From Cylindrospermopsis raciborskii Cr2010 (GTDB lineage Bacteria; Cyanobacteriota; Cyanobacteriia; Cyanobacteriales; Nostocaceae), in the NCBI RefSeq assembly GCF_003367075.2, contig NZ_CP065936.1, positions 1,230,001-1,262,000 of the forward strand: DNA of 32,000 nucleotides. The letters are read 5' to 3'. The translations under genes were made by a program, and so were the position numbers. Positions 1,510 to 20,168 of the stretch are shown in pieces. Position 1 is the first letter of the stretch, and every line of letters begins with the position of its first letter. The notes beneath the pieces are model-generated. The model was not told the origin of the DNA and searched no databases. It worked only from the letters and a program-made list of their open reading frames with translations.

Positions 1510-2658
1510 ATGAATGTAGTAATTATCGGTTGTGGTGTAGTTGGAGCAGCGATCGCATATCAACTAAGTCAAATCAAAGGTTTAAATATCACTGTTTTTG
1601 AAAAAAACCAGCCAGCACAAGGTTCTACAGCAGCTGCTTTGGGTGTTTTAATGGGGGTAATTAGCCATAAAACCAAGGGTAAGGCCTGGCAAATTCGCGA
1701 GGAGAGTATTAAACGCTATCAAACCCTAATTCCAGAGCTGGAGGAGATAACAGGGCGAAAAATTCCCTGTAACCGTCAGGGTATTGTCATGTTACTATCA
1801 GAGGATCCCACTCACCCCCTAAAAAGCGGAGTGGAAGCAATGAGTGACTGGGAGGAATTACAACAGGTGCGCAAATCCCAAGGATGGGAGTTAAAGGTGT
1901 GGGATAGGGAGAAACTAGGGAATTTTTGCCCCCAGGTAAATAATCCTATGGTAATTGGTGCTGTTTATTCCCCTCAGGATTTACAGTTGAATCCCACAGC
2001 GTTAACCCTAGCATTGGTGGACGCAGCACAGCGTAATGGGGTACAATTCAAATTTGGAGTAGCAGTTCGCAATCACCAAGCACCATCTAGTCAAATCGTC
2101 CAGATTACACCCCATGTTCAGGAACAACTAAAATCTATTGACACTACAGAAGGTGTAGTTACAGCAGATTGGTTTATCATTACTGCTGGTTTGGGCACCA
2201 CTGCACTGACTAGACAATTAAATCATCAGGTGACTATTCGTCCAGTTTTAGGACAAGCATTATATTTGAGTTTAGGAAGGAGTTTAGGCAATCCTGATTT
2301 TCAACCGGTCATTACCGGTAATGATGTACATCTAGTACCCATGGGTAATGGAGATTATTGGGTGGGAGCTACAGTAGAATTCCCTAACGGAGAAGATGAT
2401 GTTCTACCTAGTAAGGAATTACTGGAACTAGTTAAACAACAGGCGATCGCTTTTTGTCCTGAATTAGCTTCGGCCAAGATTCTTCGCAGCTGGTCAGGAT
2501 TACGTCCTCGTCCAGAAGGTAGACCAGCACCAATAATTGAAAAATTAGCCAGTTATACTAATATAATTTTGGCAACGGGTCATTACCGTAATGGAGTATT
2601 ACTTGCACCTGCTACAGCTTCTGCAGTACATGATATGATTATTACCGTTACCCGTTAA
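1510..2658 (+). CDS. FAD-dependent oxidoreductase, DAO family (glycine oxidase ThiO-like)
   Basis: N-terminal Rossmann motif VVIIGCGVVGAAIAYQL. C-terminal WSGLRPRPEGRPAPII...ATGHYRNGVLLAPATA closely resembles the ThiO/DAO signature (GLRP...GHxRNGxxLAP). Confidence 0.8.
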   Translation: MNVVIIGCGVVGAAIAYQLSQIKGLNITVFEKNQPAQGSTAAALGVLMGVISHKTKGKAWQIREESIKRYQTLIPELEEITGRKIPCNRQGIVMLLSEDPTHPLKSGVEAMSDWEELQQVRKSQGWELKVWDREKLGNFCPQVNNPMVIGAVYSPQDLQLNPTALTLALVDAAQRNGVQFKFGVAVRNHQAPSSQIVQITPHVQEQLKSIDTTEGVVTADWFIITAGLGTTALTRQLNHQVTIRPVLGQALYLSLGRSLGNPDFQPVITGNDVHLVPMGNGDYWVGATVEFPNGEDDVLPSKELLELVKQQAIAFCPELASAKILRSWSGLRPRPEGRPAPIIEKLASYTNIILATGHYRNGVLLAPATASAVHDMIITVTR

Positions 2659-4814
2659 ATAGTTAAGCCTATTAGTTTAAATGCCTGCTGTATTTGGGAT
2701 GCAAGCTGTGTTTTTTGCGACTTGTTGTATAGTTTTATTGCCTGACTATATGCAGCTAGTATTTCTCGACTATTTTCCACTTCTCCATGTTGGTTTTTGG
2801 TATTGAGTAACACCCATCCCAAGTTGTGATATGCTTCGGCGTAATTATCTCTAAATTCAATTGATTTATCTAAAAAAGCCTTAGCTTGTTTCCATGATCC
2901 TAATTGGGCATATAAAGTACCTACTCTAAAATGAGAAAAAGCCAATAGGGAATTTTTTTCCCCATGGACGTGAATTTCATTCTGAATATGGGTTATGTAC
3001 TTATCATAGATCTCAATAGCAGCTTGATAATTCTTTAGACTCTCCTGAGTGACTGCATAATTCATTAGCACCCAACCAGGAACTGAAGTTTGTTGAATAG
3101 CTGTTTCAAAACTAACTGTAGAATCTTGCCATAGAAATTCGTTTGCTTGTTTCCAACCTTTTAAACCCCATGCTATGGCATTATTAGGTGATTTATCCAC
3201 AAACTCTTGTATTCTCAGATTAACATCATTAGCCTTTTTGGTAACCACTGACCTTTCTAAAGCCATGATTAAATAAGTATATAGAGTAGATTGTAGTTCC
3301 TGCTCATCATCATTGAGATTGGCTAATTGGGTTTGTAACTTATTTTGTAATTTAAAGAGGGCTTGACTAGATGTACGAATTACCAACTTCCACTCTTGTT
3401 GTTGTAGAAGTATCCATGCTTGTAAAGTTAGGGCAAATATAGAATCAGACTCTATTTGTAAAACCTTATCTATAATTGTTTTAGCCGCAGTTAAACTGCC
3501 TGACTTAGCTAATGCCCAAGCTAAATTTGTTTTTATCCACAGTTGGTCAGGTGATAAATTAGCTCCCTTTTGTAGATTAGTTACAGCATCTTGCCAATGG
3601 TTTTCACGACAATTAATTAACCCTAACACTCCATATCCTCTACCATCATTTGGTTGGAATTTAATGGCATTTGTAGCTGCTATCTTAGCTTGATTATGGT
3701 CTAGGTATACTTGTACCAATGCCAGTTCCACAAATGCTTGTGGACTACTACCTTGGACTTGTAGATATTTTTGATATACTTGCACAGCACCGATTAAATT
3801 ACCTTGTTTAACTAAGTCCTTGGCTTTTTGATGTTGGGGATAAACAAAATTACCTTGTATGGCCGCCATTAATTCCTGAGCAGTTTGAAATCTATCTTCC
3901 ACCTTAAATTCCATTCCTGTCAAGATAATTTTTTCCATTAAAGGAGTTATGTTAGAGTTGAGTTGTCGGGGAGGGATTAATGCGTCTGATTGGGTATTTT
4001 GCAAAAGTTGACTAGCTCTTTCTGTAGCTTCTGTTGGTAACTTTCCAGTTAGTAATTCATACATTGATGCACATAAAGCATACAAGTCAGTAGCAGGAAA
4101 ATTTCTACTTCTTTGGATATATTGTTCATAAGGTGCATATCCAGCGGTGAGAATTCTAGTCATGTCTCCTGTTTGACCAGCAATAAATTCCCTTGCTGCA
4201 CCAAAATCTATGAGTACAGCTCTATTTGGTGGAACAATGATAATGTTTTCCGGTTTAATATCCCGATGTAATAAATTGTGGTCATGAATAATTTGTAGAG
4301 CGGATGCTATTTGCCAGAAATAATCCTTCACCTTATTTTCTTGGAGAATTCCTTCCTGGAGGAGAATTTTATCTAAAGATTTACCATTGAGTAATTCCAT
4401 AACCATATATGCAGTATTATTTTCTGGGAAATACTCATAAATTTCCGCAATATGGGGATGTTTACACTGTTGTAAATAGTTGGCTTCCCACTGAAATTTT
4501 TGTAGTTGCTCCAGACGCTGTGCAGGAGTAATTGATGTGGGCCATAAAACACTATTTCCATGTCTAGCAGCTTTTTCTGGCCATAGTTCTTTGATAGCCA
4601 CCTGAGCAGAATTTATCAAAGAAGTTGCTGCATAAGTAATACCAAAACCACCTTGTCCTAAAATTCTTTCTATTCTATATCTACCACTACCAATTAATGT
4701 CCCCGGTGTTAAATGTAGATTGGATACAGTATTTTCAGGTATTAAAGGTGTGCCACAGGCAATACAACTAATGGCATTATCTGAATTATCGGTGAGACAG
4801 GTGGGACATTGCAT
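2655..4814 (-). CDS. Hanks-type Ser/Thr protein kinase with N-terminal zinc ribbon and C-terminal TPR-like repeats
   Basis: CPTC...CIAC zinc ribbon at aa 3-20. Glycine loop GQGGFG, VAIK (K75), HRDIKPEN (HRD at nt 4260-4268), DFG and GYAPYE are all intact. About 390 aa of helical TPR-like repeats follow the kinase domain. The stop overlaps the convergent 1510..2658 gene by 4 nt. Confidence 0.9.
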   Translation of the reverse strand: MQCPTCLTDNSDNAISCIACGTPLIPENTVSNLHLTPGTLIGSGRYRIERILGQGGFGITYAATSLINSAQVAIKELWPEKAARHGNSVLWPTSITPAQRLEQLQKFQWEANYLQQCKHPHIAEIYEYFPENNTAYMVMELLNGKSLDKILLQEGILQENKVKDYFWQIASALQIIHDHNLLHRDIKPENIIIVPPNRAVLIDFGAAREFIAGQTGDMTRILTAGYAPYEQYIQRSRNFPATDLYALCASMYELLTGKLPTEATERASQLLQNTQSDALIPPRQLNSNITPLMEKIILTGMEFKVEDRFQTAQELMAAIQGNFVYPQHQKAKDLVKQGNLIGAVQVYQKYLQVQGSSPQAFVELALVQVYLDHNQAKIAATNAIKFQPNDGRGYGVLGLINCRENHWQDAVTNLQKGANLSPDQLWIKTNLAWALAKSGSLTAAKTIIDKVLQIESDSIFALTLQAWILLQQQEWKLVIRTSSQALFKLQNKLQTQLANLNDDEQELQSTLYTYLIMALERSVVTKKANDVNLRIQEFVDKSPNNAIAWGLKGWKQANEFLWQDSTVSFETAIQQTSVPGWVLMNYAVTQESLKNYQAAIEIYDKYITHIQNEIHVHGEKNSLLAFSHFRVGTLYAQLGSWKQAKAFLDKSIEFRDNYAEAYHNLGWVLLNTKNQHGEVENSREILAAYSQAIKLYNKSQKTQLASQIQQAFKLIGLTI

Positions 4815-4853
4815 AGACTTTACTATTTATTGGTTTGCTTATTAACTAATGAT

Positions 4854-6635
4854 TTACCAACGACCTTGATTACTCGTAACCAAAAATCGTAACGCTAAGA
4901 GTGTGGCATTATCTAGTGCACCCCTTTCTAAAACTTGGTTAATAGTAAGGTTCACAGCTGTTTGCAAGTTAGATTCAGTGATGAAATTTGTGGCAAGTTG
5001 GTTTTTAGAAACTAAGTCCCAAACTCCATCAGAACAGAGTAGTATGATATCTTCATGTTCTAATCTCATTGTTAATTCTGAAGTAGTTTGTCTTAGATCT
5101 TGAACATAGCCATCACTCAATCTACTTTTTCCACCAATAGATTTAGTCAGAATATTTCTATCTGGATGTGTTGACAATTCCTCTTCCGTAATTTTTCCAC
5201 TAGCAAATAATAGTGCCACTAAAGAGTGATCTTGACTAAGTTGTTGAATTTCTCCTTGACGCAGTAAATAAATACGACTATCCCCCACATGACCAATCAT
5301 TAGTTGTTCCGAAAAAGCAAAAATAACACTTAAAGTTGTTCCCCCATCTTTTACTTGTGCAGAAACTTTCTCATTAGCTTGAACAAATAGGGAAGTTAGC
5401 CACTCTTGGCATTCCTCCTTGGTATGATTTTCTAAAGGTAAGGGAGATTCTAGCACGGTTTCTATAGCCAATTTACTCGCCAATTCCCCCTGAGACATTC
5501 CTCCCATACCATCCGCCATCCCAGCCAAAATTACCGTCCGGCGATCGCCACTATTTTGGTATTTAATCCCATAGTTATCTTCATTTTTCAAGCGATTAAT
5601 TGAGAGTCCTACAGTAGATAAACTTGCCATGTCCCAATAAATTTTGGGGATAGTCATCTCCTGTCGAGTACGGACTAATATTTTTAAAAACTGTTCCAAT
5701 GTAAATCTTTCTTCTGGTAAGTAAGATAGACAAATTTTTAGCAGTTGATAAACTCGAGGTATAGGATTGATTTGTATTTCTTGATTTGGGTTACTGGGTA
5801 AGTTTTTGTGATGAATTATTTGATATAATAATGCTCCTACTGTGTAACTGCTCATAGTTTCGTGAACAGGATATTTACCGTATGCCAATTCTGGAGCGCA
5901 ATAGTCACCTATAAACCCAAAATTGAGTAATTCTCCTACAGGAAAGACATTAGTCAGGTCAAAGAATTTAATTGGTGTTCCTGGTGTTCCTATTTGCATT
6001 AATTTGGGAACGAGATTAATAACACACCATCCTCTTTGATGAAGATAGCGAAACACTTGACAGATTTGGCTGGTAATTAACAAAGACTCTTCCAAACTAG
6101 GTTTATTATTCAGCCAAGTTTCCAAGGTTTTATTTTCATCGGGAAGATAGGTAAGAACCAGCAATTTTTCACTTAATACACTGGTAGTAATTTCCTGTTC
6201 TGGATAATATTCCTCCTCTAAATATTCCACCTCTTGATTGCTATCTATGGTGGTATTTGTATTTTCAGGATTTTGATTTTCTGTTGTGGTTAGTGCAACA
6301 TCCAAAACTTCCCAATCCATGATATTACCTGGGATATCATGAATATTATTAATGTTAATAACAACATTGTCTACAACAGTGTGTAATAGAACTTGGGAGA
6401 TCAACTGGTAATCTCCCAATTGGGTTCTCAATTGTAATTCTCGGTTAAGTGCACCATCAGTTGTACCTATCCTGAGTAAACCTGGTTTTGCATCACCTAC
6501 TATCCAAACTTGGAAATAATAAATATCAGGCGTAAATTGTCCTAAATAGGATATAATTTCTACTGGCAGAGCTTGGATGTGAAAACAGGTGTTTTCTTGA
6601 ATTATTAATGGTAACTGATTGGTATAATCGCTCAT
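4854..6635 (-). CDS. pseudokinase-like domain fused to a PP2C (PPM) Ser/Thr phosphatase
   Basis: The C-terminal ~250 aa carry PP2C motifs: NED, ADGMGG, GGTT, GDSR, CSDGVWD, DNAT. The middle region looks like a kinase C-lobe (YLHQRG..., DYCAPELAYG, ERF), but the catalytic loop reads WCVINLVPKL instead of HRDxKPxN and DFG reads DLT. I could not find a glycine loop or VAIK. Confidence 0.85.
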   Translation of the reverse strand: MSDYTNQLPLIIQENTCFHIQALPVEIISYLGQFTPDIYYFQVWIVGDAKPGLLRIGTTDGALNRELQLRTQLGDYQLISQVLLHTVVDNVVININNIHDIPGNIMDWEVLDVALTTTENQNPENTNTTIDSNQEVEYLEEEYYPEQEITTSVLSEKLLVLTYLPDENKTLETWLNNKPSLEESLLITSQICQVFRYLHQRGWCVINLVPKLMQIGTPGTPIKFFDLTNVFPVGELLNFGFIGDYCAPELAYGKYPVHETMSSYTVGALLYQIIHHKNLPSNPNQEIQINPIPRVYQLLKICLSYLPEERFTLEQFLKILVRTRQEMTIPKIYWDMASLSTVGLSINRLKNEDNYGIKYQNSGDRRTVILAGMADGMGGMSQGELASKLAIETVLESPLPLENHTKEECQEWLTSLFVQANEKVSAQVKDGGTTLSVIFAFSEQLMIGHVGDSRIYLLRQGEIQQLSQDHSLVALLFASGKITEEELSTHPDRNILTKSIGGKSRLSDGYVQDLRQTTSELTMRLEHEDIILLCSDGVWDLVSKNQLATNFITESNLQTAVNLTINQVLERGALDNATLLALRFLVTSNQGRW

Positions 6636-6656
6636 CTTTTTATTAAGTCATGCTAT

Positions 6657-7181
6657 CTAGCTGTTTTTAAAAACAAATTTAACCTTACCAAATGCAATTT
6701 CATCGTCTGGTTTTAGAGGAGTGGGGACAGTAATTCTAGCACTGAATCGTGTTTGTCCTTGACCTTTAATAAATACTCCATTGGTAGATCCTAAATCCTT
6801 GACCTTCCATATTCCCGCCTCCTGATAAATTTCCGCGTGGTTACGGGATACGGTGTCTCCACCAAGAAAGGTTTCCAAATCTATATCCACCGGGCCAGTA
6901 TCCTGGTCAAAAATACCGACTATGGCATTATTTTCCAGAATAAATTCCGGTATGGGAGCATTGATCTGTTTACAGACTAACCTAGCAGTTGCGGATGTCC
7001 TTGTAAGTGGTATGGTTGGTGAATAGCTATTATCTGATATTGGTGGTGGAGCTGGTTGAATAATGGTGGGTGGTATGATTGACGCTGTAGTGACAGCAAT
7101 TGGCAGTTCCGAACCACAAATACTGCAGAACTCTGTATTATCTGGGTTTTGGTCATATCCACAAGCTGTACAAGTGATCAT
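6657..7181 (-). CDS. zinc-ribbon + FHA domain protein
   Basis: N-terminal CTAC...CSIC zinc ribbon, then a Pro-rich linker. The C-terminal FHA pattern is VSRNHAEI...DLGSTNGVFIKG...GDEIAFG. Confidence 0.85.
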   Translation of the reverse strand: MITCTACGYDQNPDNTEFCSICGSELPIAVTTASIIPPTIIQPAPPPISDNSYSPTIPLTRTSATARLVCKQINAPIPEFILENNAIVGIFDQDTGPVDIDLETFLGGDTVSRNHAEIYQEAGIWKVKDLGSTNGVFIKGQGQTRFSARITVPTPLKPDDEIAFGKVKFVFKNS

Positions 7182-7235
7182 GGTCTTTTATCCTTATGAT
7201 GGTAGAGTTATGTTGAAATTGTACCAGAGAGATTC

Positions 7236-8627
7236 TTATGTTCCCGTAAGTTTTCGCATCTCCTCTTCTGAAAGCATATCATCAATATCATTACCCATTT
7301 TCACCGTTTTCCCTTTAGCACCCATTTTCACCGTCTTCCGAGTTCCCGATGAGATTTTTTTAGTCTTCCGCAATTCAGATTGGGCATTATTTAAAGATTC
7401 TGTCATTTCATTATTGCCAAGTTTCACTGTCATTCTTCTAGCTGTTTCTAATAATTCCTCTGCTTTTTGTGGATTCTTTTCTGCCATTTTGATAGATTGG
7501 TCAACCAGATTGGCAATATTGCATTGTTGGACATAGTCCATAACTTCTTGATTAACCTGAGCTGCATTATGTTGTCCAGCAAGAAATTGAATAATGAGAT
7601 TTTCTGGTGGTATTTCACCGCGCCTTTTTTCTCCAGGAATGTCATAGGTCAATCCCAGCTGAGCAATACGTACACGAGAAGCAGGACGGTTATTAACTGT
7701 AAATTCTAGGATGAAGATAGTTTCATCATGAGCAATAGCATTTCCCAAGGGAAAGGGATCTTGATTAATGGGAAATTCTGCTTGGGTAGGATAAGCACGA
7801 ACAATACGACTTAGTTCTACCCCCTTCACAGTTTTCACAGTTAAAGCTAGATTAGTGATTACCTCCTGTTGTGCTTCACTATATTCAGCAATAATCTTGC
7901 CAGGTAAATCTAGTATGGATGTTTCTGTACCTTTGGCGATTCCCGGTACCACATAAAATAGTTTTCCTCCCGTGCAGTCACTAAGATGGCTCAATAAATC
8001 TTCATTGAACTCTTCCCCCACTCCCAACGCGGTGACTGGTATATTACGGGTGGCGAAATCATTAGCAATTGATTGACACTGATCTTCATCAAATGTTTGT
8101 CCATCGGTGAATAATAGAACCCGTTTAACAGTCATTTCCTGTTCACTCAATATATCAAATGCACGCCGCAGTCCTAAACCCATGCGCGTACCACCAGAAA
8201 AATTTCTCAAGTTGTTAATGGCAGTTTCTAGTTTTTTAATTTCTGTAGCACTAGTTAGTCCAATAATTGAGGAAGCACTATCATTAAATTGCACTATAGC
8301 AATGCGATCTTGTTGTTTTAATCTCCCAGAATTAACTAAGGCTAATAGGGATTCAATCACTATGTCTATTTTTGATTTACCTCCTGTCACCTCCCGATAT
8401 TCTTTGCCATCCTGTTGATAGGTGACACCTGTAGGTTTACTCTCACCTGCAACCACTTCATACATGGATCCACTAGTATCAATAACAAAAGTAAAAGTAG
8501 TTGGTGGAAGACTGGTAGCTATATCTTTGAGAGGACGCAACTTGAGCATAACAAATAACTTTTGTCCTTCCGTATCCGCTGGCATAAATTCCCGATGGGG
8601 TGTAATACTAGTCTTAATGGCATTCAT
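7236..8627 (-). CDS. von Willebrand factor A (vWA) domain protein, cytoplasmic type
   Basis: MIDAS motif DTSGS at nt 8466-8480 (aa 50-54), with downstream GGT and TDG motifs. No signal peptide. The basic Thr/Lys-rich C-terminal tail contains a 9-aa tandem repeat. Confidence 0.85.
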   Translation of the reverse strand: MNAIKTSITPHREFMPADTEGQKLFVMLKLRPLKDIATSLPPTTFTFVIDTSGSMYEVVAGESKPTGVTYQQDGKEYREVTGGKSKIDIVIESLLALVNSGRLKQQDRIAIVQFNDSASSIIGLTSATEIKKLETAINNLRNFSGGTRMGLGLRRAFDILSEQEMTVKRVLLFTDGQTFDEDQCQSIANDFATRNIPVTALGVGEEFNEDLLSHLSDCTGGKLFYVVPGIAKGTETSILDLPGKIIAEYSEAQQEVITNLALTVKTVKGVELSRIVRAYPTQAEFPINQDPFPLGNAIAHDETIFILEFTVNNRPASRVRIAQLGLTYDIPGEKRRGEIPPENLIIQFLAGQHNAAQVNQEVMDYVQQCNIANLVDQSIKMAEKNPQKAEELLETARRMTVKLGNNEMTESLNNAQSELRKTKKISSGTRKTVKMGAKGKTVKMGNDIDDMLSEEEMRKLTGT

Positions 8628-8684
8628 TTTATCTTTCCTGAAGTTAATTTTTGAGATTAATTTTTGCAGTTAAACTACCAAGAC

Positions 8685-9071
8685 CTAAACAAAGTTTAAA
8701 GGTGGCAATACACCCGATTGGAGTTGTATATCTGATATATCTGGAGCAATCATTTGAGGAATTTCCTGATTGCCATCCTCCTCAAGTTGATCAATATTTT
8801 CATCAATCAGCAGTCTTAAATTAAGACTCAGAGAACTAAATCTATAACCGTGCTTAATATCCTGAGTCCAGGTTTGAATAATTCGATTTAGTTGATAATC
8901 CCTAATTGCTGACAGGCTAAGATCCTGTAATGTCTTACGAATCTTTTCTCTAACCAGAGGTGTAAACACTTTTTCGGGTGCATCTTCCTCCATATTGTTT
9001 AAATCTAAACTGTAACTGTACGATTCAGATGGTGAACCCTCTGGTTTGAGATGGAAAGTATATTTGACCAT
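8685..9071 (-). CDS. hypothetical acidic protein (128 aa), cluster-embedded orphan
   Basis: ATG-to-stop ORF, co-directional with both vWA genes and 28 and 57 bp from them. No recognisable motif. Confidence 0.55.
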   Translation of the reverse strand: MVKYTFHLKPEGSPSESYSYSLDLNNMEEDAPEKVFTPLVREKIRKTLQDLSLSAIRDYQLNRIIQTWTQDIKHGYRFSSLSLNLRLLIDENIDQLEEDGNQEIPQMIAPDISDIQLQSGVLPPLNFV

Positions 9072-9099
9072 TGTGCCAATTAAACAAGAATTTTGATAA

Positions 9100-10563
9100 T
9101 TAGGTTTTATCTTTAACTTCTAGGGTAATTTTCCCCAACTTACGGACATCACCCACCTTTAAACTCTGAGTAGTAACTCTCATTTTCTTCATCCTAGCAT
9201 ATTCTTGGTCGAACTCCATGATAATATCACTTCCCTCCTTAAATATTCTAGCAGTAAGCGGTGCAAATCCGTCTGCTGCACTTAGGGGAATTTCCACGTT
9301 CACAGAAGTACCTATGGAAATTGGCCTGGTACCCAGTAAATATCTGGTCTGCTCCGTGGGTGTCCAATGCACTAACAAGTAAGGCTCTGAGTTTAACTGT
9401 TTTTGTTCAATCCAAGCAATCATCAATCCGATAAAAAACCCTAATATGGATACACCAGATAAGCGTCCCATAATGTCTCCTAGAATACTTGATGTAATTA
9501 GAAAGCCACCAGCACCGATTCCACCACCTACAGTTCCCCCCAGGAGGGCGTTTTTGAAGTTGAGATTGGGGACGAAGAATTTTGTGCCAGCTCCCACCAC
9601 CGCTCCCACAATCACCCAACCTCCAATTTTGGTAATTACTTCCAGACCAAGGATTCCTGAAAATGTTGTATTCACTGACAATACCACAAACAAAAATTGT
9701 CCACTTGCACCTGCGATGGTTCCTGCTACCAGACTACCAATAATAGTGATAATTCCCTTTTTCGCAGTTAATAATGGTAGTCGCATATAGCGATTTTGTC
9801 CCATAATTAAAGCCAAACATATTCCCATGGACAAAAACGCTGTCCAACCACCAATGCGGAATATGGAATAAGTAAAAGTATAGTTTTCACCAGTGTTGGA
9901 TTCAATCAACTGTTTATAAATTACCGCTTCTGCTTGGCTAAATGCTTGGTCAAATTGACCAGAATTAGCATAAAATACTAGGGAGCGATCGCCTGTGATT
10001 TGGGTTAAATAATTAGTGTCTGCACCTCCGGTAGCTACTGCAATTAGTTTAATTCCTGCATTTCTCACAGACAGGGCTGAATTGTAGGCAAAATTAGGAT
10101 CATCTGGTATTCCATCGGTAAATAAAATGATATTTTTGTTTAATGTTGTTGCTTGCAATTGATCTTGGGCAGTGTTAATACCTTCTCCCATAGGTGTTGA
10201 GCCATTTTCTAATAGTTGATTAATGGCATTATTTAAAATATTAATGTCGTTTGTCAATGGAGCAGGGGTTGCAACTGCTGAGCCAAAATTCACCACTGCT
10301 ATTTGATCTACTTCTAAGTTACGACGTTGCACAAACTGACTGGCGGCCGTTTTAACTTCCGTTAATTTACCATCACTCATGCTTGAGGATGTGTCAATTA
10401 ATAAGACTATCGCTTGAGGATTTGTTGTGGGTTTATTCCCACTTTTGGTTAGGGCTAGAAATGGTTCTCCTAGCAAGATTGCTGCTGTTAAACAGCCAGC
10501 GGATCCATATATGGCAAATAATAGGGTTTTGTTGTTTTTTAAGCGATTGATTAGGTTCAACAT
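9100..10563 (-). CDS. membrane vWA protein: signal-anchor + extracytoplasmic vWA + glycine-zipper TM bundle + C-terminal beta-rich (FHA-like?) domain
   Basis: A basic N-terminus is followed by TM1. MIDAS DTSSS lies at nt 10381-10395, with FTDG downstream. Five further hydrophobic, Gly-rich segments span aa ~232-386 (e.g. LLGGTVGGGIGAGGFLI). The last ~95 aa follow an FHA-like spacing but lack the canonical GR/SxxH/NG residues. Confidence 0.85.
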   Translation of the reverse strand: MLNLINRLKNNKTLLFAIYGSAGCLTAAILLGEPFLALTKSGNKPTTNPQAIVLLIDTSSSMSDGKLTEVKTAASQFVQRRNLEVDQIAVVNFGSAVATPAPLTNDINILNNAINQLLENGSTPMGEGINTAQDQLQATTLNKNIILFTDGIPDDPNFAYNSALSVRNAGIKLIAVATGGADTNYLTQITGDRSLVFYANSGQFDQAFSQAEAVIYKQLIESNTGENYTFTYSIFRIGGWTAFLSMGICLALIMGQNRYMRLPLLTAKKGIITIIGSLVAGTIAGASGQFLFVVLSVNTTFSGILGLEVITKIGGWVIVGAVVGAGTKFFVPNLNFKNALLGGTVGGGIGAGGFLITSSILGDIMGRLSGVSILGFFIGLMIAWIEQKQLNSEPYLLVHWTPTEQTRYLLGTRPISIGTSVNVEIPLSAADGFAPLTARIFKEGSDIIMEFDQEYARMKKMRVTTQSLKVGDVRKLGKITLEVKDKT

Positions 10564-10622
10564 TTTGCTTATGGTAAATTAGGTGTAATAAAATTCATGA
10601 TGCAATTCAATTCCGTGGTTTT

Positions 10623-11522
10623 TTATGGACTTCTTACCTTTATTTGAGTAACATACCAAGTGGCATTATTCTGATTCCAATCAAGATAAAATCTTAATCT
10701 GACTGGAAGTAATCGACGATTTTTCATACTATATTCACCTCGAAAATTAACGATAGCCGAGTTTTTATCTTCTGATTGAGTACCAACCCTAATTACCCTA
10801 ACACTCTCAACTTGCGTCCACCATCCTAAAAAGGAATCATAACCATTTGGATGTAAATTTAGATCTTCTTTAACTGTACTTGGATAAATATCCCAAGCAG
10901 TATCATACTGTTTATTATTGATCTTATCATAATAATCTCGAATTACTTGTTCAGGTGAAATTCTGGAAGTATTTTGTGTTGCTGTGTAGGACTTTTGAAC
11001 TGAATCTGCTCTTGGTGGTATTTGGGATTTAGTTTTAGGAATGGGTGCAGCTGTGGTAGCTATTACTGTCGATTTTTTTACTGAATCCTCCATAGTAACC
11101 GGATCGGATTTAAGGGTAGACCCTAAACCCACTTCTAAATTAAAATTTTTCACCCCTTGTGGTGCACCCACCTGTATGGTGTATTGACCAGTTTTAAGCA
11201 AATCTTTCCCTTTAACAATTTCAGTGTCTGGAGTAAATACCCAAATACAAACATCACTATCCGTACTGTAACTCAATTTATCCCCTGCTATTGCTGCAAA
11301 GGTGTACCCCACATGTTGCTCCACACTTACCTGGTTAGATTTACTAATTCTACCTTGATCGAATGTAAGGTTTTCAACATTTTTGGCATTTAATGAAACT
11401 GTAGGTTTATCAGGACAACCGGGTGAACTTAAAAGATTGGATGAAATAGATCCATGAGGATTGACTCCTTGACAACCGAGAAGTGATAAACAGGTGGAGC
11501 AAAAAATTATTTTTTTCAACAT
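10623..11522 (-). CDS. lipoprotein: beta-sandwich-like N-domain + NTF2-like C-domain
   Basis: I prefer the ATG at 11522 (MLKKIIFCSTCLSLLGC) because it aligns with the paralogue; the track start at 11555 adds 11 aa. Lipobox LLGC. The C-terminal pattern (VIRDYYDKIN..YDTAWDIY...W.V..I) is typical of NTF2-like domains seen at the ends of cyanobacterial kinases. Confidence 0.7.
   Translation of the reverse strand: MLKKIIFCSTCLSLLGCQGVNPHGSISSNLLSSPGCPDKPTVSLNAKNVENLTFDQGRISKSNQVSVEQHVGYTFAAIAGDKLSYSTDSDVCIWVFTPDTEIVKGKDLLKTGQYTIQVGAPQGVKNFNLEVGLGSTLKSDPVTMEDSVKKSTVIATTAAPIPKTKSQIPPRADSVQKSYTATQNTSRISPEQVIRDYYDKINNKQYDTAWDIYPSTVKEDLNLHPNGYDSFLGWWTQVESVRVIRVGTQSEDKNSAIVNFRGEYSMKNRRLLPVRLRFYLDWNQNNATWYVTQIKVRSP
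11125..11430. repeat. direct repeat copy 1 (shared lipoprotein N-domain DNA)
   Basis: Aligned by eye at a 947-bp offset. 11125-11354 is 230/230 identical to 12072-12301. The next 76 bp are about 87 percent identical, and similarity then collapses. Confidence 0.9.
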
Positions 11523-11584
11523 ACCAAAATTTTTACAATTTATAGCCGTATTCATCTACAACGGAAGCGGTCCAGAATGGTTAC

Positions 11585-12475
11585 CTATTGCCAAGCAGGA
11601 TAGACCTCAGAGATTTTCCACCTTGTGTTTTCTTTTTCAAAAAAATAAGTTAGATTTCTAGTGAACTTTCCCGATTTTGCCCTATCAATCCCATACCTAC
11701 TGTGTAAATATCTCTCCTCCCTTACTCTAACCCTAATATAAGGACGTTTCCCGGAATTTGAAAAATTAACCACTCTTTTTATTTCTGAAGAAATATATTC
11801 ATAATATGCTCCATTTTGTCTTAACCACTCCACTGGTCCATCAGCTTTAGTTGTAAAATTGTGCATTTTGCCCGTTGCTAATTGATCTACTAAATTGGTA
11901 TCAAAGGGTGATGCAAATATTTGAGGTTTTGCCGCGTACCATTGTTTAACCAGTTCCACAGCATCTTCTTGAGAAATATCATGTTCTGGCTGTAAATTAT
12001 TCTCTTTTGCATCTAAGTTTATTGTGGGAGTCGATTCAGTGGTGGGACTAATGTTAGTCTGTAAATCTCCCAAACCCACTTCTAAATTAAAATTTTTCAC
12101 CCCTTGTGGTGCACCCACCTGTATGGTGTATTGACCAGTTTTAAGCAAATCTTTCCCTTTAACAATTTCAGTGTCTGGAGTAAATACCCAAATACAAACA
12201 TCACTATCCGTACTGTAACTCAATTTATCCCCTGCTATTGCTGCAAAGGTGTACCCCACATGTTGCTCCACACTTACCTGGTTAGATTTACTAATTCTAC
12301 CCTGATTGAATGTGATTTTTTCAACATTTTTGGCATTTAATGAAACTGTCGGTTTATCAGAACAACCAGGTGAACCTAAATTAAGAATCCCCGTCCCTTT
12401 AGGGGTGGGGAGTGTCAATCCTTGACAACCCAGAAGTGATAGACAGGTGGAGTAAAAAATCATTTTCTTCAACAT
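11585..12475 (-). CDS. lipoprotein paralogue: same N-domain + DUF4101/ARC6-IMS-like C-domain
   Basis: Signal peptide MLKKMIFYSTCLSLLGC. The N-domain is nearly identical to the neighbour. The C-terminal AVELVKQWYAAKPQIF...NGAYYEY...WKISEV resembles the DUF4101 (ARC6 IMS) family as I recall it. Confidence 0.7.
   Translation of the reverse strand: MLKKMIFYSTCLSLLGCQGLTLPTPKGTGILNLGSPGCSDKPTVSLNAKNVEKITFNQGRISKSNQVSVEQHVGYTFAAIAGDKLSYSTDSDVCIWVFTPDTEIVKGKDLLKTGQYTIQVGAPQGVKNFNLEVGLGDLQTNISPTTESTPTINLDAKENNLQPEHDISQEDAVELVKQWYAAKPQIFASPFDTNLVDQLATGKMHNFTTKADGPVEWLRQNGAYYEYISSEIKRVVNFSNSGKRPYIRVRVREERYLHSRYGIDRAKSGKFTRNLTYFFEKENTRWKISEVYPAWQ
12072..12377. repeat. direct repeat copy 2
   Basis: Partner of 11125-11430. 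The identical 78-aa antisense ORFs in the track (11157.. and 12104..) are a by-product of this repeat. Confidence 0.9.
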
Positions 12476-12546
12476 ATCAAAATTATCTCATCTGTTATCT
12501 ACCAACCTTGATTTGAAATCCGTTCCTTTTAACAACCAACCAATTC

Positions 12547-13308
12547 CTATGGCAAAGTAAGAATCTCCACCCCATTTTCCGTTACCGCTATAGTATGCTC
12601 AAACTGAGCAGAAAGTTTTCTATCCCTTGTAATAGCAGTCCACCCATCAGCTAACATCTCAAACTCATAGGAACCCTCATTAATCATTGGTTCAATGGTA
12701 AAGACCATACCCGGTCTTAATAATCTACCAGTCCCCCTAGTGCCAAAATGAGGAATGTCTGGTGCAGTATGAAAAATCTTATTAATTCCATGACCGACAA
12801 AATCCCGCACCACCGAAAACCCATGACCCTCCGCATGCTCTTGAATAGCAGCACCAATGTCACCAATTCTCCCACCAGGTCTAATTTCTGCAATACCTAA
12901 ATACAAACACTTCTGTGTCACCTCTACCAATTTTTTGGCTATGGGCCTAGCTTCACCTACAATAAAGGTTTTAGATGTATCTCCATGATAACCATCTAAT
13001 ACAGGCGTTACATCAATGTTAATAATATCACCCTTCTTGAGAACCCGTTGTGAACTAGGAATGCCATGACAAATTACTTCATTTAAACTAGTACAAATTG
13101 ATTTAGGAAAGCCCATATAACCCAAGGGTGCGCTCTTGGCTCCATGAGCTTGTGTCCATGCTTCCGCTTCATCATTCAGTTCTTGAGTGGTTACACCAGG
13201 TTTAACCAAGGGTTCTAGGTGTTGTAATAGCTGAGCTGCTAGACTTCCAGCACGTCGCATTTTTTCTATTTCTCGTGCAGACAAAAGAATAATTTGTTTG
13301 GTGTTCAT
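12547..13308 (-). CDS. map: type I methionine aminopeptidase
   Basis: 253 aa. Shows the MAP pita-bread metal-ligand pattern: EVICHGIP, DIINIDVT...GYHGD, VGHGI, FTIEP, QFEHT. Confidence 0.9.
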   Translation of the reverse strand: MNTKQIILLSAREIEKMRRAGSLAAQLLQHLEPLVKPGVTTQELNDEAEAWTQAHGAKSAPLGYMGFPKSICTSLNEVICHGIPSSQRVLKKGDIINIDVTPVLDGYHGDTSKTFIVGEARPIAKKLVEVTQKCLYLGIAEIRPGGRIGDIGAAIQEHAEGHGFSVVRDFVGHGINKIFHTAPDIPHFGTRGTGRLLRPGMVFTIEPMINEGSYEFEMLADGWTAITRDRKLSAQFEHTIAVTENGVEILTLP

Positions 13309-13321
13309 CTAATAATCTTGA

Positions 13322-14323
13322 CTAATCTTGATCCAAAAATATTGTTAATCCGGTCTCAGCTGCTCTACGAGCTGCATCTGCAATTTTTAAAGTGTATAAA
13401 CTTTGTTCTGCAGTTACATATAAAGGGGAACCATGAAAAATATGATCTAAAACTATTTTAGTATCCCTAGCAAATAATCCCTGACGATTAGCAATTTCTA
13501 TTGACCTTGTGTCTTCCGATCCTATAAAAATTCCTTTATCCCCATCCAGAATCAAACCCCCGTTTTCAGCACTGACTTCTAATTTCCGTTCTGATTGCCA
13601 TATAGTTTCACCTTTGCCATAAATAACCTGAGCTAACAAACCATCGGCAAAACATAATTGGGTTGTACAAAGACAACCTTGATAATATTCCTCCTCTGTT
13701 TCCCAATATCGCTGATGACAATTCACTGTTACTACCTGACCAAATACATCAATGAGACGATGTAATCGCGATAATGCGCCCATTAGGGGAAATCCAAACA
13801 ATTGATGATTATAAGTCCATTTTCTCCGAGCTGGATGTTCCGCTTTCATAGTGCTGTAACGAACATAAAACAACTGTCCCAGCATAGGTAAGTTTTCTTT
13901 GAGTACCTGATGCCAACCACTCAGAAGTTCAATGTGCTCTACATGGAGCAGTCTTTTTTTGTCCTTTGCTAAAGCAATTAATTCCTCCGCATCTTTAAGA
14001 TTTAACGACAAAGGATACTCAACAACCAAATGTTTGTTATTATTCAATGCCGCACGGGCTATTTTACCATGATCTGAGTTGATTGTAGAAATAACTATTA
14101 AATCTACATCTTCTCTTCCTACTAACTCCTCCCAAGAATTGCTTACTTGGGTTTCGTAACTTTTTGCCAAAGCAGTTATCGATTCAGGAGAGTGTCCCGC
14201 AATAGCTATCAAATTCGCACGCTCATCCTGCTTAATTGCTTGAGATCTGTGTTTGGCTGCATACCCAGTGCCAATCAGGCCTACCCCTATGCTTTTTTCA
14301 GTAAACAGTCCGTAATTGTACAT
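13322..14323 (-). CDS. bvdR: Gfo/Idh/MocA-fold oxidoreductase, biliverdin reductase (BvdR)-like
   Basis: N-terminal GLIGTGYAA Rossmann motif. KHLVVEYPLSL...LLHVEHIELL and FGFPLMGALSRLHRLIDVFG parallel human BLVRA (KHVLVEYPMTL...[30 protein letters not shown]) as I recall that sequence. Confidence 0.55.
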   Translation of the reverse strand: MYNYGLFTEKSIGVGLIGTGYAAKHRSQAIKQDERANLIAIAGHSPESITALAKSYETQVSNSWEELVGREDVDLIVISTINSDHGKIARAALNNNKHLVVEYPLSLNLKDAEELIALAKDKKRLLHVEHIELLSGWHQVLKENLPMLGQLFYVRYSTMKAEHPARRKWTYNHQLFGFPLMGALSRLHRLIDVFGQVVTVNCHQRYWETEEEYYQGCLCTTQLCFADGLLAQVIYGKGETIWQSERKLEVSAENGGLILDGDKGIFIGSEDTRSIEIANRQGLFARDTKIVLDHIFHGSPLYVTAEQSLYTLKIADAARRAAETGLTIFLDQD

Positions 14324-14459
14324 AAAAATTTACCAGTTTACTCAATCAGTATAATTAAAGCTTATTCTTGAAAGTGTAACAGTTTTGTGGAAAAGTGAGC
14401 CAGAGGTAGTTACTAAGCTGTCCTGCACCTGGATTGCATAATAGGAAATTAACTAATCA

Positions 14460-16286: not shown

Positions 16287-17112
16287 GTAAAGTTTGGTAA
16301 CAAAAAAGAGAATTGAGGCGTTGCATATTTGCGGGATGAATCAACTAAACGCGGGTATTACTTCATACTTTAAATAGTGAAGTAATAATTTAATTGAATA
16401 CCTAAGCATATCTACAGATTTTGAATAGCATAGCGTTTTTCTATGTAGTCGCGCTAAGTAGTGACGTAAACGTGTATTTTCACCCTCTACCCTAGTCATA
16501 TATGTTTTGCTCACAATATGATCCTCTGGCTGAATAAAACTCGGATAAACCCTCCACCCATCAGTAACATAAAAAAAGCATTGCCAGAGTTTAACGATGT
16601 CCCACAAAGGTTGAAATGCTTGTGAGCTGTGGTCTCCCACAACCCAAGCCAGGATATTTTTACGGAAGTGATTTACTGCTGTCCACAACCATATTTTGTT
16701 TTTTTTTGATCCCACAAAGGTCTCCAACTCATCAAGCTCACCTACCAAGGGTGTTTCCTCAACTGGTGGAGCATCTGGAAGTATGGAACCAATTTGTTTT
16801 AGCCAGTAAATAATAGTTGTATGATGAACGCCTTTATCGCGTTCAATTGCTCTAAATCCCATACCGTTAACATAAGAGCGCAGGCAACTTTGTTTAACTT
16901 CTTCTGAATAGCCTTTAGGTGGACTATAGACATCGATAAATTGACGACCACAATCAACACAAATGTGATTTTGTTTACCTCGACGTTTGCCATTCTTTCT
17001 GATTTTGGAAGACCCGCAGTTTGGACAATGCACAGTAGATTACCTCAATTCATACCTCTATTATGCAACGCCATTGATTGCAGAAATGTTGAATGTCGTT
17101 ACAAAACTTTAC
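16287..17112 (-). mobile_element. IS1-family insertion sequence (about 826 bp)
   Basis: Terminal inverted repeats match 14/15: gtaaagtttggtaac (16287-16301) versus gttacaaaactttac (17098-17112). A sub-terminal inverted pair is ggcgttgcata (16317-16327) and tatgcaacgcc (17062-17072). There is a single transposase ORF. I could not see a clean target-site duplication. Confidence 0.75.
16341..17033 (-). CDS. IS1-family transposase (single-ORF type)
   Basis: GTG start, with GAGG 11 nt upstream. N-terminal zinc finger CPNCGS...CVDCGRQF, then an HTH region, then the DDE region (DELETFVGSKKNKIWLW...TDGW..Y...H...K..T..VEGENTRLRHYLARLHRKTLCYSKS), characteristic of IS1 InsAB-type proteins. Confidence 0.85.
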   Translation of the reverse strand: MHCPNCGSSKIRKNGKRRGKQNHICVDCGRQFIDVYSPPKGYSEEVKQSCLRSYVNGMGFRAIERDKGVHHTTIIYWLKQIGSILPDAPPVEETPLVGELDELETFVGSKKNKIWLWTAVNHFRKNILAWVVGDHSSQAFQPLWDIVKLWQCFFYVTDGWRVYPSFIQPEDHIVSKTYMTRVEGENTRLRHYLARLHRKTLCYSKSVDMLRYSIKLLLHYLKYEVIPAFS

Positions 17113-17650: not shown

Positions 17651-17947
17651 TAATTCCAACAGAGGATATTTTAACCATTGTTTTATGTTTTAAATCCGAT
17701 TAATATAGGTTTTGTTTTCTTGGCGACAAAAACCACAAGCTTCAGCAACCCCTACCATAATTATTTATTTTGGATAAGTACGGTATGTCAATCGAATTAT
17801 AGTATTATTGGATTGTTTCATACCTCCACTAAAAAAACAAGTCTTAATGTCAGAATTTTTGCCAAAACTCAATTTTTATCCCCAAAGGATCTGAAAATAT
17901 GCCAAAGTACGGTTTCATTTCAGTTCATAAATCATTTCGCTAAGTCA

Positions 17948-18727
17948 ATGCTACAAAATTTCAACCTTTTTCATAGTTTCCTTTTGTTTACTACTTCCTT
18001 TATTGCTGGTTCACTAAATGCTGTAGCAGGAGGTGGTAGTTTTATTACCTTTCCTACTCTTATATTTGTTGGTATATCCCCAATCACTGCCAATGCCAGC
18101 AATAATACTGCTTTATGGATTGCTTCTATGGCTAGTGCAGGTGCCTATAGGCGTAATTTACGCATACCAAAGAAAGAATTTTTAGTTCTATGTGTTACCA
18201 GTTTGATTGGGGGAGTAATTGGATCTGTAATTTTGTTATACACATCACCAAATGTTTTTAAAAACTTACTACCCTATCTATTGCTATCAGCGACACTAAT
18301 TTTCACCTTTAATGATGTATTTCAAAAATGGTTACAGGTGCAAAATCAAAGATCCTTGGATACCCCAACCGCCCCTTTGTGGGTTCTGGTAATTGCTCAA
18401 CTAGCAATTTCCGTTTACGGTGGTTTTTTTGGTGCAGGTCTGGGGATTTTAATGTTAGCAACTTTAAGTTTTTTAGGTATTAAAAATATTCACTCTATGA
18501 ATGCTTTTAAAGCCTTTCTCGGTAGTTGTATCAATGGTATTGCCATCTTTCCCTTTATGTATGCTGGAATGATTGCCTGGCATCAAACTATACTAATGGC
18601 TATCGGCGGTTCCCTAGGTGGTTACTTGTGTGCTCATTACGCTTATAAGTTGAAACCCAGTTTCGTTAAAACAATTGTTATCGTTACTGGGTTCAGCATG
18701 ACTATTTACTTTTTTATTCGTAGCTAA
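17948..18727 (+). CDS. tauE: TauE/SafE (DUF81) family sulfite/organosulfonate exporter
   Basis: From the ATG at 17948 the protein is 259 aa, polytopic, with the family-typical AGSLNAVAGGGSFITFP and VYGGFFGAGLGILML motifs. The 90 codons the track adds upstream (17678-17947) have no membrane-protein character. Confidence 0.8.
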   Translation: MLQNFNLFHSFLLFTTSFIAGSLNAVAGGGSFITFPTLIFVGISPITANASNNTALWIASMASAGAYRRNLRIPKKEFLVLCVTSLIGGVIGSVILLYTSPNVFKNLLPYLLLSATLIFTFNDVFQKWLQVQNQRSLDTPTAPLWVLVIAQLAISVYGGFFGAGLGILMLATLSFLGIKNIHSMNAFKAFLGSCINGIAIFPFMYAGMIAWHQTILMAIGGSLGGYLCAHYAYKLKPSFVKTIVIVTGFSMTIYFFIRS

Positions 18728-18755
18728 CATAGTTTTTGTAGTCATCAATACTTGA

Positions 18756-18928
18756 TTAGATCTGATTAATAATGCAGGGTCAGCTCGTGCTGGATCATTT
18801 TTAGATCTTGATGATCAAGTATTTTTAGATGCTTGGCACTTGAAAGTTTTAGGATACATTCGTTTTGTAAGATTGGTAGTTCCCTACTTCAAACAGCAAA
18901 GTGATGGAAGGATTGTAAATATTATTGG
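18756..18928 (+). pseudogene. short-chain dehydrogenase/reductase (SDR) internal fragment
   Basis: Encodes LDLINNAGSARAGSFLDLDDQVFLDAWHLKVLGYIRFVRLVVPYFKQQSDGRIVNIIG. This is the NNAG-to-(G)RIVNI(S) segment of classical SDRs. The TGxxxGxG Rossmann start and the YxxxK catalytic motif are both missing. Confidence 0.6.
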
Positions 18929-19123
18929 GTTTAATCTTGTAAATAAGTCCCGCATACTTGTTAAACTATTATCCAAGGCATAAGCCAACCAACACTCAAC
19001 ATAAAGACGGCTGTTCAAAACTGGATAATCATTTTTTGGTAACAGTCTGAGGATGTCCTTGACAATCTTGGGGAATGAATTTATGATCATTATCAAATCA
19101 ATATTTTGATATGGGTTGCCCAA
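18929..19123 (-). pseudogene. IS4-like transposase, N-terminal ~65-aa fragment
   Basis: (M)IINSFPKIVKDILRLLPKNDYPVLNSRLYVECWLAYALDNSLTSMRDLFTRLN resembles the N-terminus of IS4-family DDE transposases. Homology ends abruptly at the junction with the SDR fragment. A 9-bp stem hairpin (19116-19124 with 19136-19144) lies at the outer end. Confidence 0.55.
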
Positions 19124-19258
19124 ATTTTAATATATTTTGGGCAATTTTTATCACAACTTTCTTAACATTCAACACTTCTGGGTATAATTAACTTACAAGT
19201 GCATAAATAAGGTGCAAGCAAGGCACTTTTAATCTACCTTTTTTGAGGCTTTGGTAAT

Positions 19259-19822: not shown

Positions 19823-19846
19823 AAACTAAAGTGGAGGCAATTAGCT

Positions 19847-20038: not shown

Positions 20039-20168
20039 ATTTAGCCAATCGGTAAACCTTTCTCAACAAAACGATTTAATGGCTTGTACCAGAACTAAAA
20101 AAGGTCAACCATCAGATGATAAAGGCGAAAACCCGTCTAGGACTTGATTAGCAATAGCTTAACGGTTT

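Follow-up and report, generated by a model that had tools for sequence, protein, structure and literature searches.

A probable ArnA/ArnB-type phosphothreonine switch tied to envelope proteins in a gene cluster of Cylindrospermopsis raciborskii and related cyanobacterial loci

Bacteria commonly carry gene clusters in which vWA, FHA, PP2C and kinase genes are combined, and the mechanism is known for almost none of them. We analyzed a stretch of 32,000 nucleotides (nt) from the bloom-forming toxic cyanobacterium Cylindrospermopsis raciborskii (referred to as the window) that contains such a cluster of eight genes, W1–W8, on the minus strand at 2655–12475. We found that the core W4–W8 is probably an ArnA/ArnB-type phosphothreonine switch, tied to envelope proteins and embedded in a widespread cyanobacterial locus. 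We hold this reading with moderate confidence, because W5 matches ArnB in profile and fold, W6 resembles ArnA, W8 resembles ArnC and W7 contributes a PP2C phosphatase. An initial annotation made from the sequence had described Hanks kinase, PP2C and FHA signalling joined to envelope components and to two vWA proteins with intact metal ion-dependent adhesion sites (MIDAS), which agrees with our results. It had missed the better match, which is the ArnA/ArnB/ArnC system of Sulfolobus together with the DRA0331-0334 operon of Deinococcus. The cluster is best described as a phospho-switch of the ArnAB/DRA0331-0334 type with added envelope components, normally coupled to DO-GTPases and naturally truncated here. 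The genes and the feature of special interest are, in order of transcription:

W1, 11585..12475, minus strand: lipoprotein of 296 amino acids (aa) with an LLGC lipobox, an N-terminal beta-rich domain and a C-terminal ARC6-like IMS domain (DUF4101); predicted periplasmic.
W2, 10623..11555, minus strand: lipoprotein, 310 aa as called; the likely true start is M12 at 11522 (299 aa).
W3, 9100..10563, minus strand: membrane vWA protein of 487 aa; MIDAS DTSSS at 10381–10395, with T123 and D149.
W4, 8685..9071, minus strand: orphan protein of 128 aa; small alpha/beta domain (residues 1–98) and a disordered conserved tail, GNQE.P..I.PDLS.IEP..GMLPPLNF.
W5, 7236..8627, minus strand: ArnB-type vWA protein of 463 aa; MIDAS DTSGS at 8466–8480.
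W5 C-terminal tail, 7293..7370, minus strand: residues 420–445, RKTKKISSGTRKTVKMGAKGKTVKMG; candidate phospho-acceptors T422, T429, T432 and T441.
W6, 6657..7181, minus strand: protein of 174 aa in which a Pro-rich linker joins a 4-Cys zinc ribbon to an FHA domain.
W7, 4854..6635, minus strand: protein of 593 aa with an N-terminal kinase-like domain lacking catalytic residues and a C-terminal PP2C domain whose metal-binding motifs are intact.
W8, 2655..4814, minus strand: protein of 719 aa with an N-terminal 4-Cys zinc ribbon, a Hanks Ser/Thr kinase domain and C-terminal TPR repeats.

The assignment starts from W5. Its AlphaFold2 (AF2) model, with a predicted local distance difference test score (pLDDT) of 79 and a predicted template modelling score (pTM) of 0.74, consists of two N-terminal strands, the vWA domain (Pfam VWA, E 7e-19), a beta-sandwich (residues 255–347), a helical bundle (360–424) and a disordered, basic, Thr-rich tail. 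The MIDAS residues D50, S52, S54, T147 and D175 are invariant. When the W5 profile was compared to PDB sequences, the best match was 8s05 (ArnA-ArnB, Sulfolobus acidocaldarius) with E 1.8e-11. Foldseek placed 4fx5 (a Catenulispora vWA protein), 8s05 (ArnB) and 5a8j (the ArnB paralogue vWA2) at the top, with E between 1e-17 and 1e-22 and template modelling (TM) scores of 0.54–0.75; inter-alpha-inhibitor heavy chain, Sec24/Sec23 and integrins followed. The predicted model shows W5 to have the ArnB fold of vWA, beta-sandwich and helical bundle. The tail provides a second link. Its four candidate threonines each have a hydrophobic residue at +3, which bacterial FHA domains often favour, and are invariant in 50 cyanobacterial sequences. 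T432 and T441 lie in a KT[VIL] context and are retained both in Deinococcus and in bacterial relatives with only 24–35% identity. The region is modelled with a pLDDT below 50 and aligns in a profile alignment with the phosphorylated TTRR repeats of ArnB (PMC6509490).

The adjoining gene product W6 has the zinc finger at the N-terminus and the FHA domain at the C-terminus as in ArnA, which it matches weakly (5a8i, E 0.009). The initial annotation had stated that the FHA domain reads phosphothreonine. The FHA fold was recovered (Pfam, E 2.2e-12) and S112, R113, H115 and N134 are invariant among orthologues, whereas the canonical Arg of the FHA GR motif is Ile in W6 (76 orthologues: Ile in 37, Arg in 17, Lys in 13 and Val in 9). 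A TagH-type FHA model reached 19.5 bits in the window compared to a cut-off of 120. For W8 we obtained matches to Pfam Pkinase (E 6.6e-43) and to several TPR families. Its catalytic motifs GQGGFG, VAIK, HRD (4260–4268) and DFG are intact and conserved in 67 orthologues, and the protein is soluble, with neither a transmembrane segment nor a vWA domain. The zinc ribbons of W6 and W8 both score below the curated cut-offs, yet all four cysteines are conserved, and an hhalign comparison matched one ribbon to the other (94.6%). Judged from this comparison they are homologous. The PP2C part of W7 was supported by Pfam (E 4e-13) and by the Stp1-type model of NCBIfam (1e-52). The pseudokinase part proposed for the same protein has moderate support: Pfam Pkinase gave 18 bits, against a cut-off of 31.7, and hhalign with the kinase family returned a probability of 55.6% (E 1e-4) with 252 columns in register. 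VIN is found in place of HRD, and neither a glycine loop nor the VAIK lysine is present.

In Sulfolobus, the zinc finger of ArnA docks on the beta-sandwich and C-terminal domain of ArnB, the TPR-bearing kinase ArnC phosphorylates the C-terminal threonines of ArnB in sequence, and the FHA domain then binds ArnB tightly until PP2A reverses the modification (PMC6509490, PMC12852372). ArnB and W5 share the vWA domain with intact MIDAS, the beta-sandwich, the helical bundle and the Thr-rich C-terminus (8s05, 5a8i, 5a8j); ArnC and W8 are both Hanks kinases with a TPR-like region, and a Ser/Thr phosphatase opposes the kinase in both systems. The parts encoded in the window thus correspond to those of the Arn system, except that PP2C replaces PP2A. 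The systems differ in that the TPR-like region of ArnC is N-terminal and no zinc ribbon is present, whereas W8 starts with its zinc ribbon and ends with TPR repeats. The Arn system further has no counterpart of W4, the membrane vWA protein, the lipoproteins or the DO-GTPases, its FHA domain differs from that of W6 in the canonical Arg, and its output, archaellum expression, has no counterpart in the cluster.

By analogy with the Arn system, the zinc ribbon of W6 would dock on the beta-sandwich and helical region of W5, and W8 would phosphorylate the tail or the bundle of W5. The FHA domain of W6 would clamp the resulting phosphothreonines, which would change the shape of the complex and its exposed surfaces, and the PP2C domain of W7 would reset the switch; the pseudokinase domain may tether W7 to W8. 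The connection of the switch to the cell envelope, and probably to events involving peptidoglycan, would be made by W3, W1 and W2. As its output, the switch might control the assembly or gating of W3, or a partner encoded at another site.

A closer bacterial counterpart was found on the megaplasmid of D. radiodurans, where tblastn located homologues of W5–W8, all four in one locus (DRA0331-0334). Identity to the cluster is 40.6% over the full length of the vWA protein (DRA0331), 44% for the FHA protein and 36–41% for the kinase. W7 is 31.7% identical to DRA0334, likewise a PP2C protein with an N-terminal extension, over residues 183–582. The Deinococcus vWA protein also shares the conserved tail threonines of W5. 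The genes are arranged in the order vWA, kinase, FHA, PP2C instead of vWA, FHA, PP2C, kinase, and the Deinococcus kinase has C-terminal transmembrane helices in place of TPR repeats. No W4, W3, lipoproteins or DO-GTPases are located nearby. The Deinococcus locus has a second kinase, fused to a beta-helix protein: the gene following DRA0334 (L087, 15020–17983), annotated only as beta-helix repeat protein, begins with a zinc ribbon and kinase domain of 40.6% identity to residues 1–317 of W8. The operon has been studied biochemically (bioRxiv 10.64898/2026.01.23.701218), and the N-terminal region of DRA0334 was interpreted there as a KI-FHA domain; in our analysis the region appeared kinase-like.

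Beyond Deinococcus, the W5 profile gave 142 matches at E ≤ 1e-30 among 1.8 billion cluster representatives. We sampled four distant ArnB-like vWA genes. Three of them adjoin genes for a kinase, PP2C or FHA protein, and in the fourth locus the sequence stops shortly after the vWA gene, with the start of a kinase-like open reading frame (ORF) detected there by tblastn. Because distant vWA genes adjoin phospho-signalling genes in this way, sequence comparison indicates that the ArnB-like vWA protein with phospho-signalling partners is a widespread module, of which the cyanobacterial form is one elaborated variant.

The gene layout drawn in the initial annotation was reproduced in all details. The eight ORFs and the intervening gaps of 29, 59, 28, 57, 54, 21 and 39 base pairs (bp) were recovered and the positions of the MIDAS and kinase motifs were exact; the first gap, between W1 and W2, increases from 29 to 62 bp if W2 starts at M12. 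The vWA, FHA, PP2C, Pkinase, TPR and DUF4101 calls were upheld by Pfam and NCBIfam. As had been claimed, our scan placed no terminator-like hairpin in any intergenic gap. All hairpin candidates on the minus strand are intragenic, and their overall number corresponds to the shuffle level. As the counts of the promoter and terminator scan are generally at shuffle level, they give little information either way. Upstream of the cluster on the same strand lie genes for methionine aminopeptidase (Map) and a Gfo/Idh/MocA oxidoreductase. Downstream, a convergent FAD oxidoreductase gene overlaps the stop codon of the W8 kinase by 4 nt, and therefore the unit ends where it had been proposed to end.

To assess synteny, all eight window proteins were compared across 78 loci, one genome per species, spanning Nostocales, Oscillatoriales, Pleurocapsales, Chroococcales, Spirulina, Arthrospira, Trichodesmium and Pseudanabaena. 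Upstream counts refer to the 61 loci with enough upstream sequence and downstream counts to 57 loci. Downstream of W5 we found the FHA gene (W6) in 57/57 loci and the PP2C (W7) and kinase (W8) genes in 56/57 each, and the order FHA, PP2C, kinase is kept in 55/57. W4 is located upstream of W5 in 61/61 loci and is immediately adjacent in 76/77. Orthologues of W3 and W1 are less constant, the former being present upstream of W5 in 41/61 loci and the latter upstream of the core in 43/61. The arrangement is far beyond chance, and the test for a lack of synteny clearly fails, with an order of W4–W8 that is nearly invariant across cyanobacterial loci and kept in about 55 species. The cluster is a real functional unit, as had been suggested, with a constant core W4–W8 and a more variable envelope part W1–W3.

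The orphan W4 was found only in cyanobacteria among the searches made, and it has no match in Pfam, NCBIfam or PADLOC. Its AF2 model (pLDDT 78, pTM 0.61) gave no significant match to PDB folds. As its position next to W5 is fixed, gene order suggests that W4 is a direct partner of W5. The conserved tail of W4 might be a ligand of the W5 MIDAS site or of the W8 TPR repeats.

The initial annotation had called the system self-contained, which does not hold: in 57/61 loci of other cyanobacteria the genes shared with the window follow a conserved extra block on the same strand. This block contains two or three paralogous DO-GTPases (30/30 scanned members match Pfam PF19993), a protein of ~711 aa without recognisable domain (C3), a membrane protein of 359 aa (C4), a third vWA protein (C5) and a lipoprotein paralogous to W1 and W2 (C6). 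In two loci of the Prochloron group (Prochloron, Prochloraceae) the core W4–W8 occurs without the block. Neither a DO-GTPase nor any other member of the block was found in the window. Using C4 of Cuspidothrix as query, we found homologues in Dolichospermum, Aphanizomenon and Sphaerospermopsis and no Cylindrospermopsis or Raphidiopsis among the 120 matches listed, and in the closest full-length locus found (W5 85% identical) the GTPases are still present. On these comparisons Cylindrospermopsis and Raphidiopsis appear to have lost the DO-GTPase block, and the cluster appears to be a truncated version of a larger locus. The closest full-length relative (L090) also contains a small ORF and a PIN-domain gene, likely a toxin-antitoxin pair, inserted at 4503–5117 in its DO-GTPase half.

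DO-GTPase systems were defined by Kaur, Burroughs, Iyer and Aravind (2020) and predicted to be conflict systems; a third, GAP1-N2-type theme with an active kinase, PP2C and stand-alone vWA was described as restricted to actinobacteria (PMC7159879). Similar to this theme, kinase, PP2C and vWA genes follow paired DO-GTPases in the other cyanobacteria, together with further vWA proteins, one of which combines a predicted extracellular vWA domain with several transmembrane helices, and with links to peptidoglycan. It differs from the theme in that the FHA protein and the orphan are extra constant parts, that no GAP1 domain was detected in the ~711-aa protein (0/25 members with a Pfam match; a divergent GAP1 is possible), and that the window has no DO-GTPase. 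The locus of cyanobacteria thus resembles the actinobacterial DO-GTPase theme closely enough to be regarded as a probable, hitherto undescribed relative of it.

The envelope part consists of two related lipoproteins and W3. The lipoprotein calls were borne out, since a lipobox-type Cys recurs among the orthologues of both W1 and W2: the strict pattern is present in 31/47 and 20/27, with looser variants such as IYGC in others. The ARC6-like IMS domain of W1 matches PF13355 (E 1.2e-21), while the C-terminal half of W2 has no Pfam match. W2 is a paralogue of W1 and of the 265-aa C6 of other loci (hhalign W1/W2/C6 100%). The W1 and W2 genes share a direct repeat of 300 nt with 97% identity (11122–11421 and 12069–12368) and one of 66 nt with 91% identity, which covers both signal peptides (11466–11531 and 12419–12484) and places the start of W2 at 11522 rather than 11555. 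The exact 310-aa W2 sequence was not present in the protein collection searched, whereas the other seven proteins are each identical to a C. raciborskii sequence, and two of the proteins match strain Cr2010. The repeats indicate, at the sequence level, that signal peptide and N-terminal domain of W1 and W2 underwent a recent tandem duplication or gene conversion/homogenisation.

W3 has an N-terminal anchor (residues 13–33) following basic residues, a vWA domain (Pfam VWA, E 3.8e-22) with an intact and conserved MIDAS, a glycine-zipper region of about five helices (234–386) and a conserved C-terminal domain (395–487). Based on hydropathy and conservation, the vWA domain is predicted to be periplasmic and the C-terminal domain cytoplasmic. 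C4 of the upstream block is a paralogue of the membrane and C-terminal part of W3 (hhalign 97.6%), and the C-terminal domain of W3 by itself matches the C4 C-terminus (84.5%, hhalign). We also considered this domain as a degenerate FHA domain and rejected it (hhalign against the W6 FHA family, 1.7% probability). Cell-wall enzymes are often encoded in a slot between the ARC6-IMS lipoprotein and W3 genes of other cyanobacteria: among 30 inserted genes scanned, 16 are of the Beta-lactamase2 type, five encode VanY D,D-carboxypeptidases and one an NlpC/P60 protein with SH3 domains. PG_binding_1 was found on two homologues of C3. Because of this repeated association with cell-wall enzymes, gene neighbourhood points to the peptidoglycan or periplasm as the place of sensing or action. 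The variable slot was seen in L002, L003, L009 and about 20 other loci, the enzyme differing by species; two Spirulina genomes are 94–99% identical on either side of the slot and show no alignment inside it.

Comparison with close relatives showed that the cluster is unusually diverged. Between C. raciborskii and Raphidiopsis brookii D9, DNA identity is 79.6% in the cluster (2655–10622) and 95–96% in the flanks (1–2643 and 12509–14373), and the breakpoints coincide with the cluster ends. The number of synonymous substitutions per site (dS) is 0.49–1.39 within the cluster, as compared to 0.15–0.16 in the neighboring Map and oxidoreductase genes. The ratio of nonsynonymous to synonymous substitution (dN/dS) of W3–W8 is 0.10–0.20, corresponding to purifying selection. 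This combination of high dS and low dN/dS indicates an old allelic split or a replacement by recombination rather than relaxed constraint, as far as can be judged from the sequences. A second genome of the D9 type (L088) gives the same picture and is 96.8% identical to D9 throughout, so that two allele classes can be distinguished. In the other pairs of related genomes compared, the loci have too little flank to reveal a divergent island. D9 and a metagenomic genome related to it lack the two lipoprotein genes, with Map directly preceding the W3 gene (D9: L004, 7940–8014). With the DO-GTPase block lost first and W1/W2 lost in addition in D9, this suggests a stepwise loss from the 5' side in the lineage. 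W5 homologues are further located on at least eight cyanobacterial plasmids. Plasmid B of Trichormus (Anabaena) variabilis ATCC 29413 (35.8 kb) carries a complete 16-gene locus from the DO-GTPases to the kinase, which makes up more than half of the replicon. This locus spans the origin, and the remainder encodes ParA/ParB, DnaB, an integrase and an XisF-type recombinase. In Chroococcidiopsis the locus adjoins a relaxase gene.

Several points weigh against an Arn-type switch linked to the envelope. The similarity to ArnA/ArnB is remote, with 17–18% identity in the structural alignment, and the Arn system is archaeal. The phosphatase of the cluster is a pseudokinase-PP2C protein and that of the Arn system PP2A, and the pseudokinase call is the weakest of the domain calls, with the moderate sequence support given above. 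Only 30/76 orthologues have Arg or Lys at the GR position of W6, so that phosphothreonine binding may be weak or unusual. The link to envelope and peptidoglycan rests on gene neighbourhood in other species, and the window has no peptidoglycan enzyme. No output or effector was found, the Pfam and NCBIfam scans of the cluster being free of effector-type domains. Finally, literature searches (FraH, DUF4101, vWA/FHA/PP2C) returned no experiment on any cyanobacterial member, in line with the earlier view that the system is uncharacterised in cyanobacteria.

A different biological role, which we regard as possible though unlikely, is that of an accessory conflict system acting in anti-phage or abortive defence or in self/non-self recognition. 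The initial annotation had raised an abortive-type function as one option. The switch would then gate an effector, e.g. glycine-zipper proteins or peptidoglycan hydrolases. As this concerns the role, it could coexist with the switch mechanism. The association with DO-GTPases in other cyanobacteria speaks for it, since the family has been described only in predicted conflict systems (PMC7159879), as do the plasmid copies, the adjoining relaxase gene and the PIN toxin pair inserted in one locus. The same is true for the constant modules on either side of a variable middle slot and for the cluster identity of 79–80% between flanks of 95–96%. In PADLOC the W8 kinase matches the PD-T4-6 and mad6 models; however, these kinase matches are generic, there is one PP2C match, and neither vWA protein, the orphan nor the lipoproteins have any. 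The PADLOC matches of the FHA protein are weak (E 0.003–0.008) and confined to the zinc ribbon. Pfam and NCBIfam detected no nuclease, NADase, protease or known pore toxin domain, and the phage collection contained no homologue of W5. Moreover, the cluster is flanked by housekeeping genes in the window and retained in streamlined genomes, and its core proteins are unusually well conserved (50–90% across orders, the range also found for W5 across cyanobacteria) and under purifying selection. For the biological role we therefore consider a signalling apparatus linked to the envelope somewhat more likely than a defence system.

The fold of W5 also recalls Sec23/Sec24 of the COPII inner coat, which share with W5/W6 the vWA 'trunk', beta-sandwich, helical domain and zinc finger. 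This likeness is at fold level only (Foldseek E ~1e-12, TM ~0.46) and had been pointed out for ArnAB by its authors. Sec23/24 acts together with a small GTPase, and GTPases are linked to the cyanobacterial locus as well. Unlike Sec23/24, the cluster has no gelsolin domain, the DO-GTPases are unrelated to Sar1, and our analysis gave no sign of coat formation. A speculative extension, to which we give little credence, is that the locus encodes a previously unrecognised bacterial machine: an envelope assembly gated by phosphorylation and GTPases, transferred on plasmids and maintained in the form of deeply diverged alleles. It would be built from the ArnB/Sec23-like vWA protein, its zinc-ribbon FHA partner and, in most cyanobacteria, paired DO-GTPases, glycine-zipper membrane proteins and periplasmic peptidoglycan enzymes. 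If true, this would be a new class of anti-phage or kin-discrimination systems, or a bacterial counterpart of GTPase-controlled membrane assemblies of the Sec23/24 type.

That the eight genes are a non-functional remnant decaying after loss of the DO-GTPase half is very improbable. Such decay would fit the missing upstream block and the additional absence of both lipoprotein genes in R. brookii D9, but all eight ORFs are intact, as are the catalytic and MIDAS residues, and the dN/dS values of W3–W8 stay low. Copies of seven of the eight proteins with at least 90% identity exist in many Cylindrospermopsis strains (the 310-aa W2 is not among them). Furthermore, W4–W8 occur alone in the two Prochloron-group loci and W5–W8 in Deinococcus.

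The comparisons drawn in the initial annotation, to the threonine-phosphorylation pathway of type VI secretion systems (T6SS; PpkA/PppA/Fha1) and to the TerY-P triad, rest on a common parts list of kinase, PP2C, FHA and vWA and are hardly credible, since no T6SS or ter genes occur among the window ORFs, as had in fact been noted, W8 lacks the transmembrane segment and periplasmic vWA domain of PpkA, and no PADLOC model matches either vWA protein. The TerY-P triad (Anantharaman et al. 2012) comprises vWA, PP2C and kinase, and defence activity was reported by Gao et al. 2020 (both cited after PMC11090510). The cluster resembles it in encoding vWA, PP2C and Ser/Thr kinase together and in the zinc ribbon on the kinase. 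The TerY-P vWA is a stand-alone domain, whereas W5 is of the three-domain ArnB type, and the triad is without an FHA protein. The TerY-P kinase carries a C-terminal zinc ribbon or OB fold (PMC11090510), whereas W8 has its ribbon N-terminal and TPR repeats at the C-terminus.

The Arn-type reading of the core has several consequences. Through the link to the structurally solved ArnAB switch, concrete questions can be asked about the phosphorylated threonines, the docking domains and the reset of the system. The same switch would be present in cyanobacteria and Deinococcus, with a structural counterpart in archaea. Coupling to DO-GTPases, earlier reported for actinobacteria only, extends to cyanobacteria, and the GTPase-less version of Cylindrospermopsis and Raphidiopsis would be a natural dissection of the parts able to work alone. 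Plasmid carriage and the 20%-diverged island suggest unusual selection, which could help to tell conflict from envelope housekeeping.

An Rfam scan of the whole window gave no match. About 4 kb upstream of the cluster we found an ORF for an IS1-family transposase at 16341–17033 (Pfam DDE_Tnp_IS1, E 2e-26), near the place where the DO-GTPase block would be expected. The region from 17678 to 30405 is occupied by a block for sulfur/organosulfur metabolism and transport, which includes a TauE exporter, an FMN reductase, a Sulf_transp protein, a Cys/Met pyridoxal phosphate enzyme, an alpha/beta hydrolase, an ATP-binding cassette (ABC) exporter, an amidohydrolase, a luciferase-like monooxygenase and an ABC ATPase.

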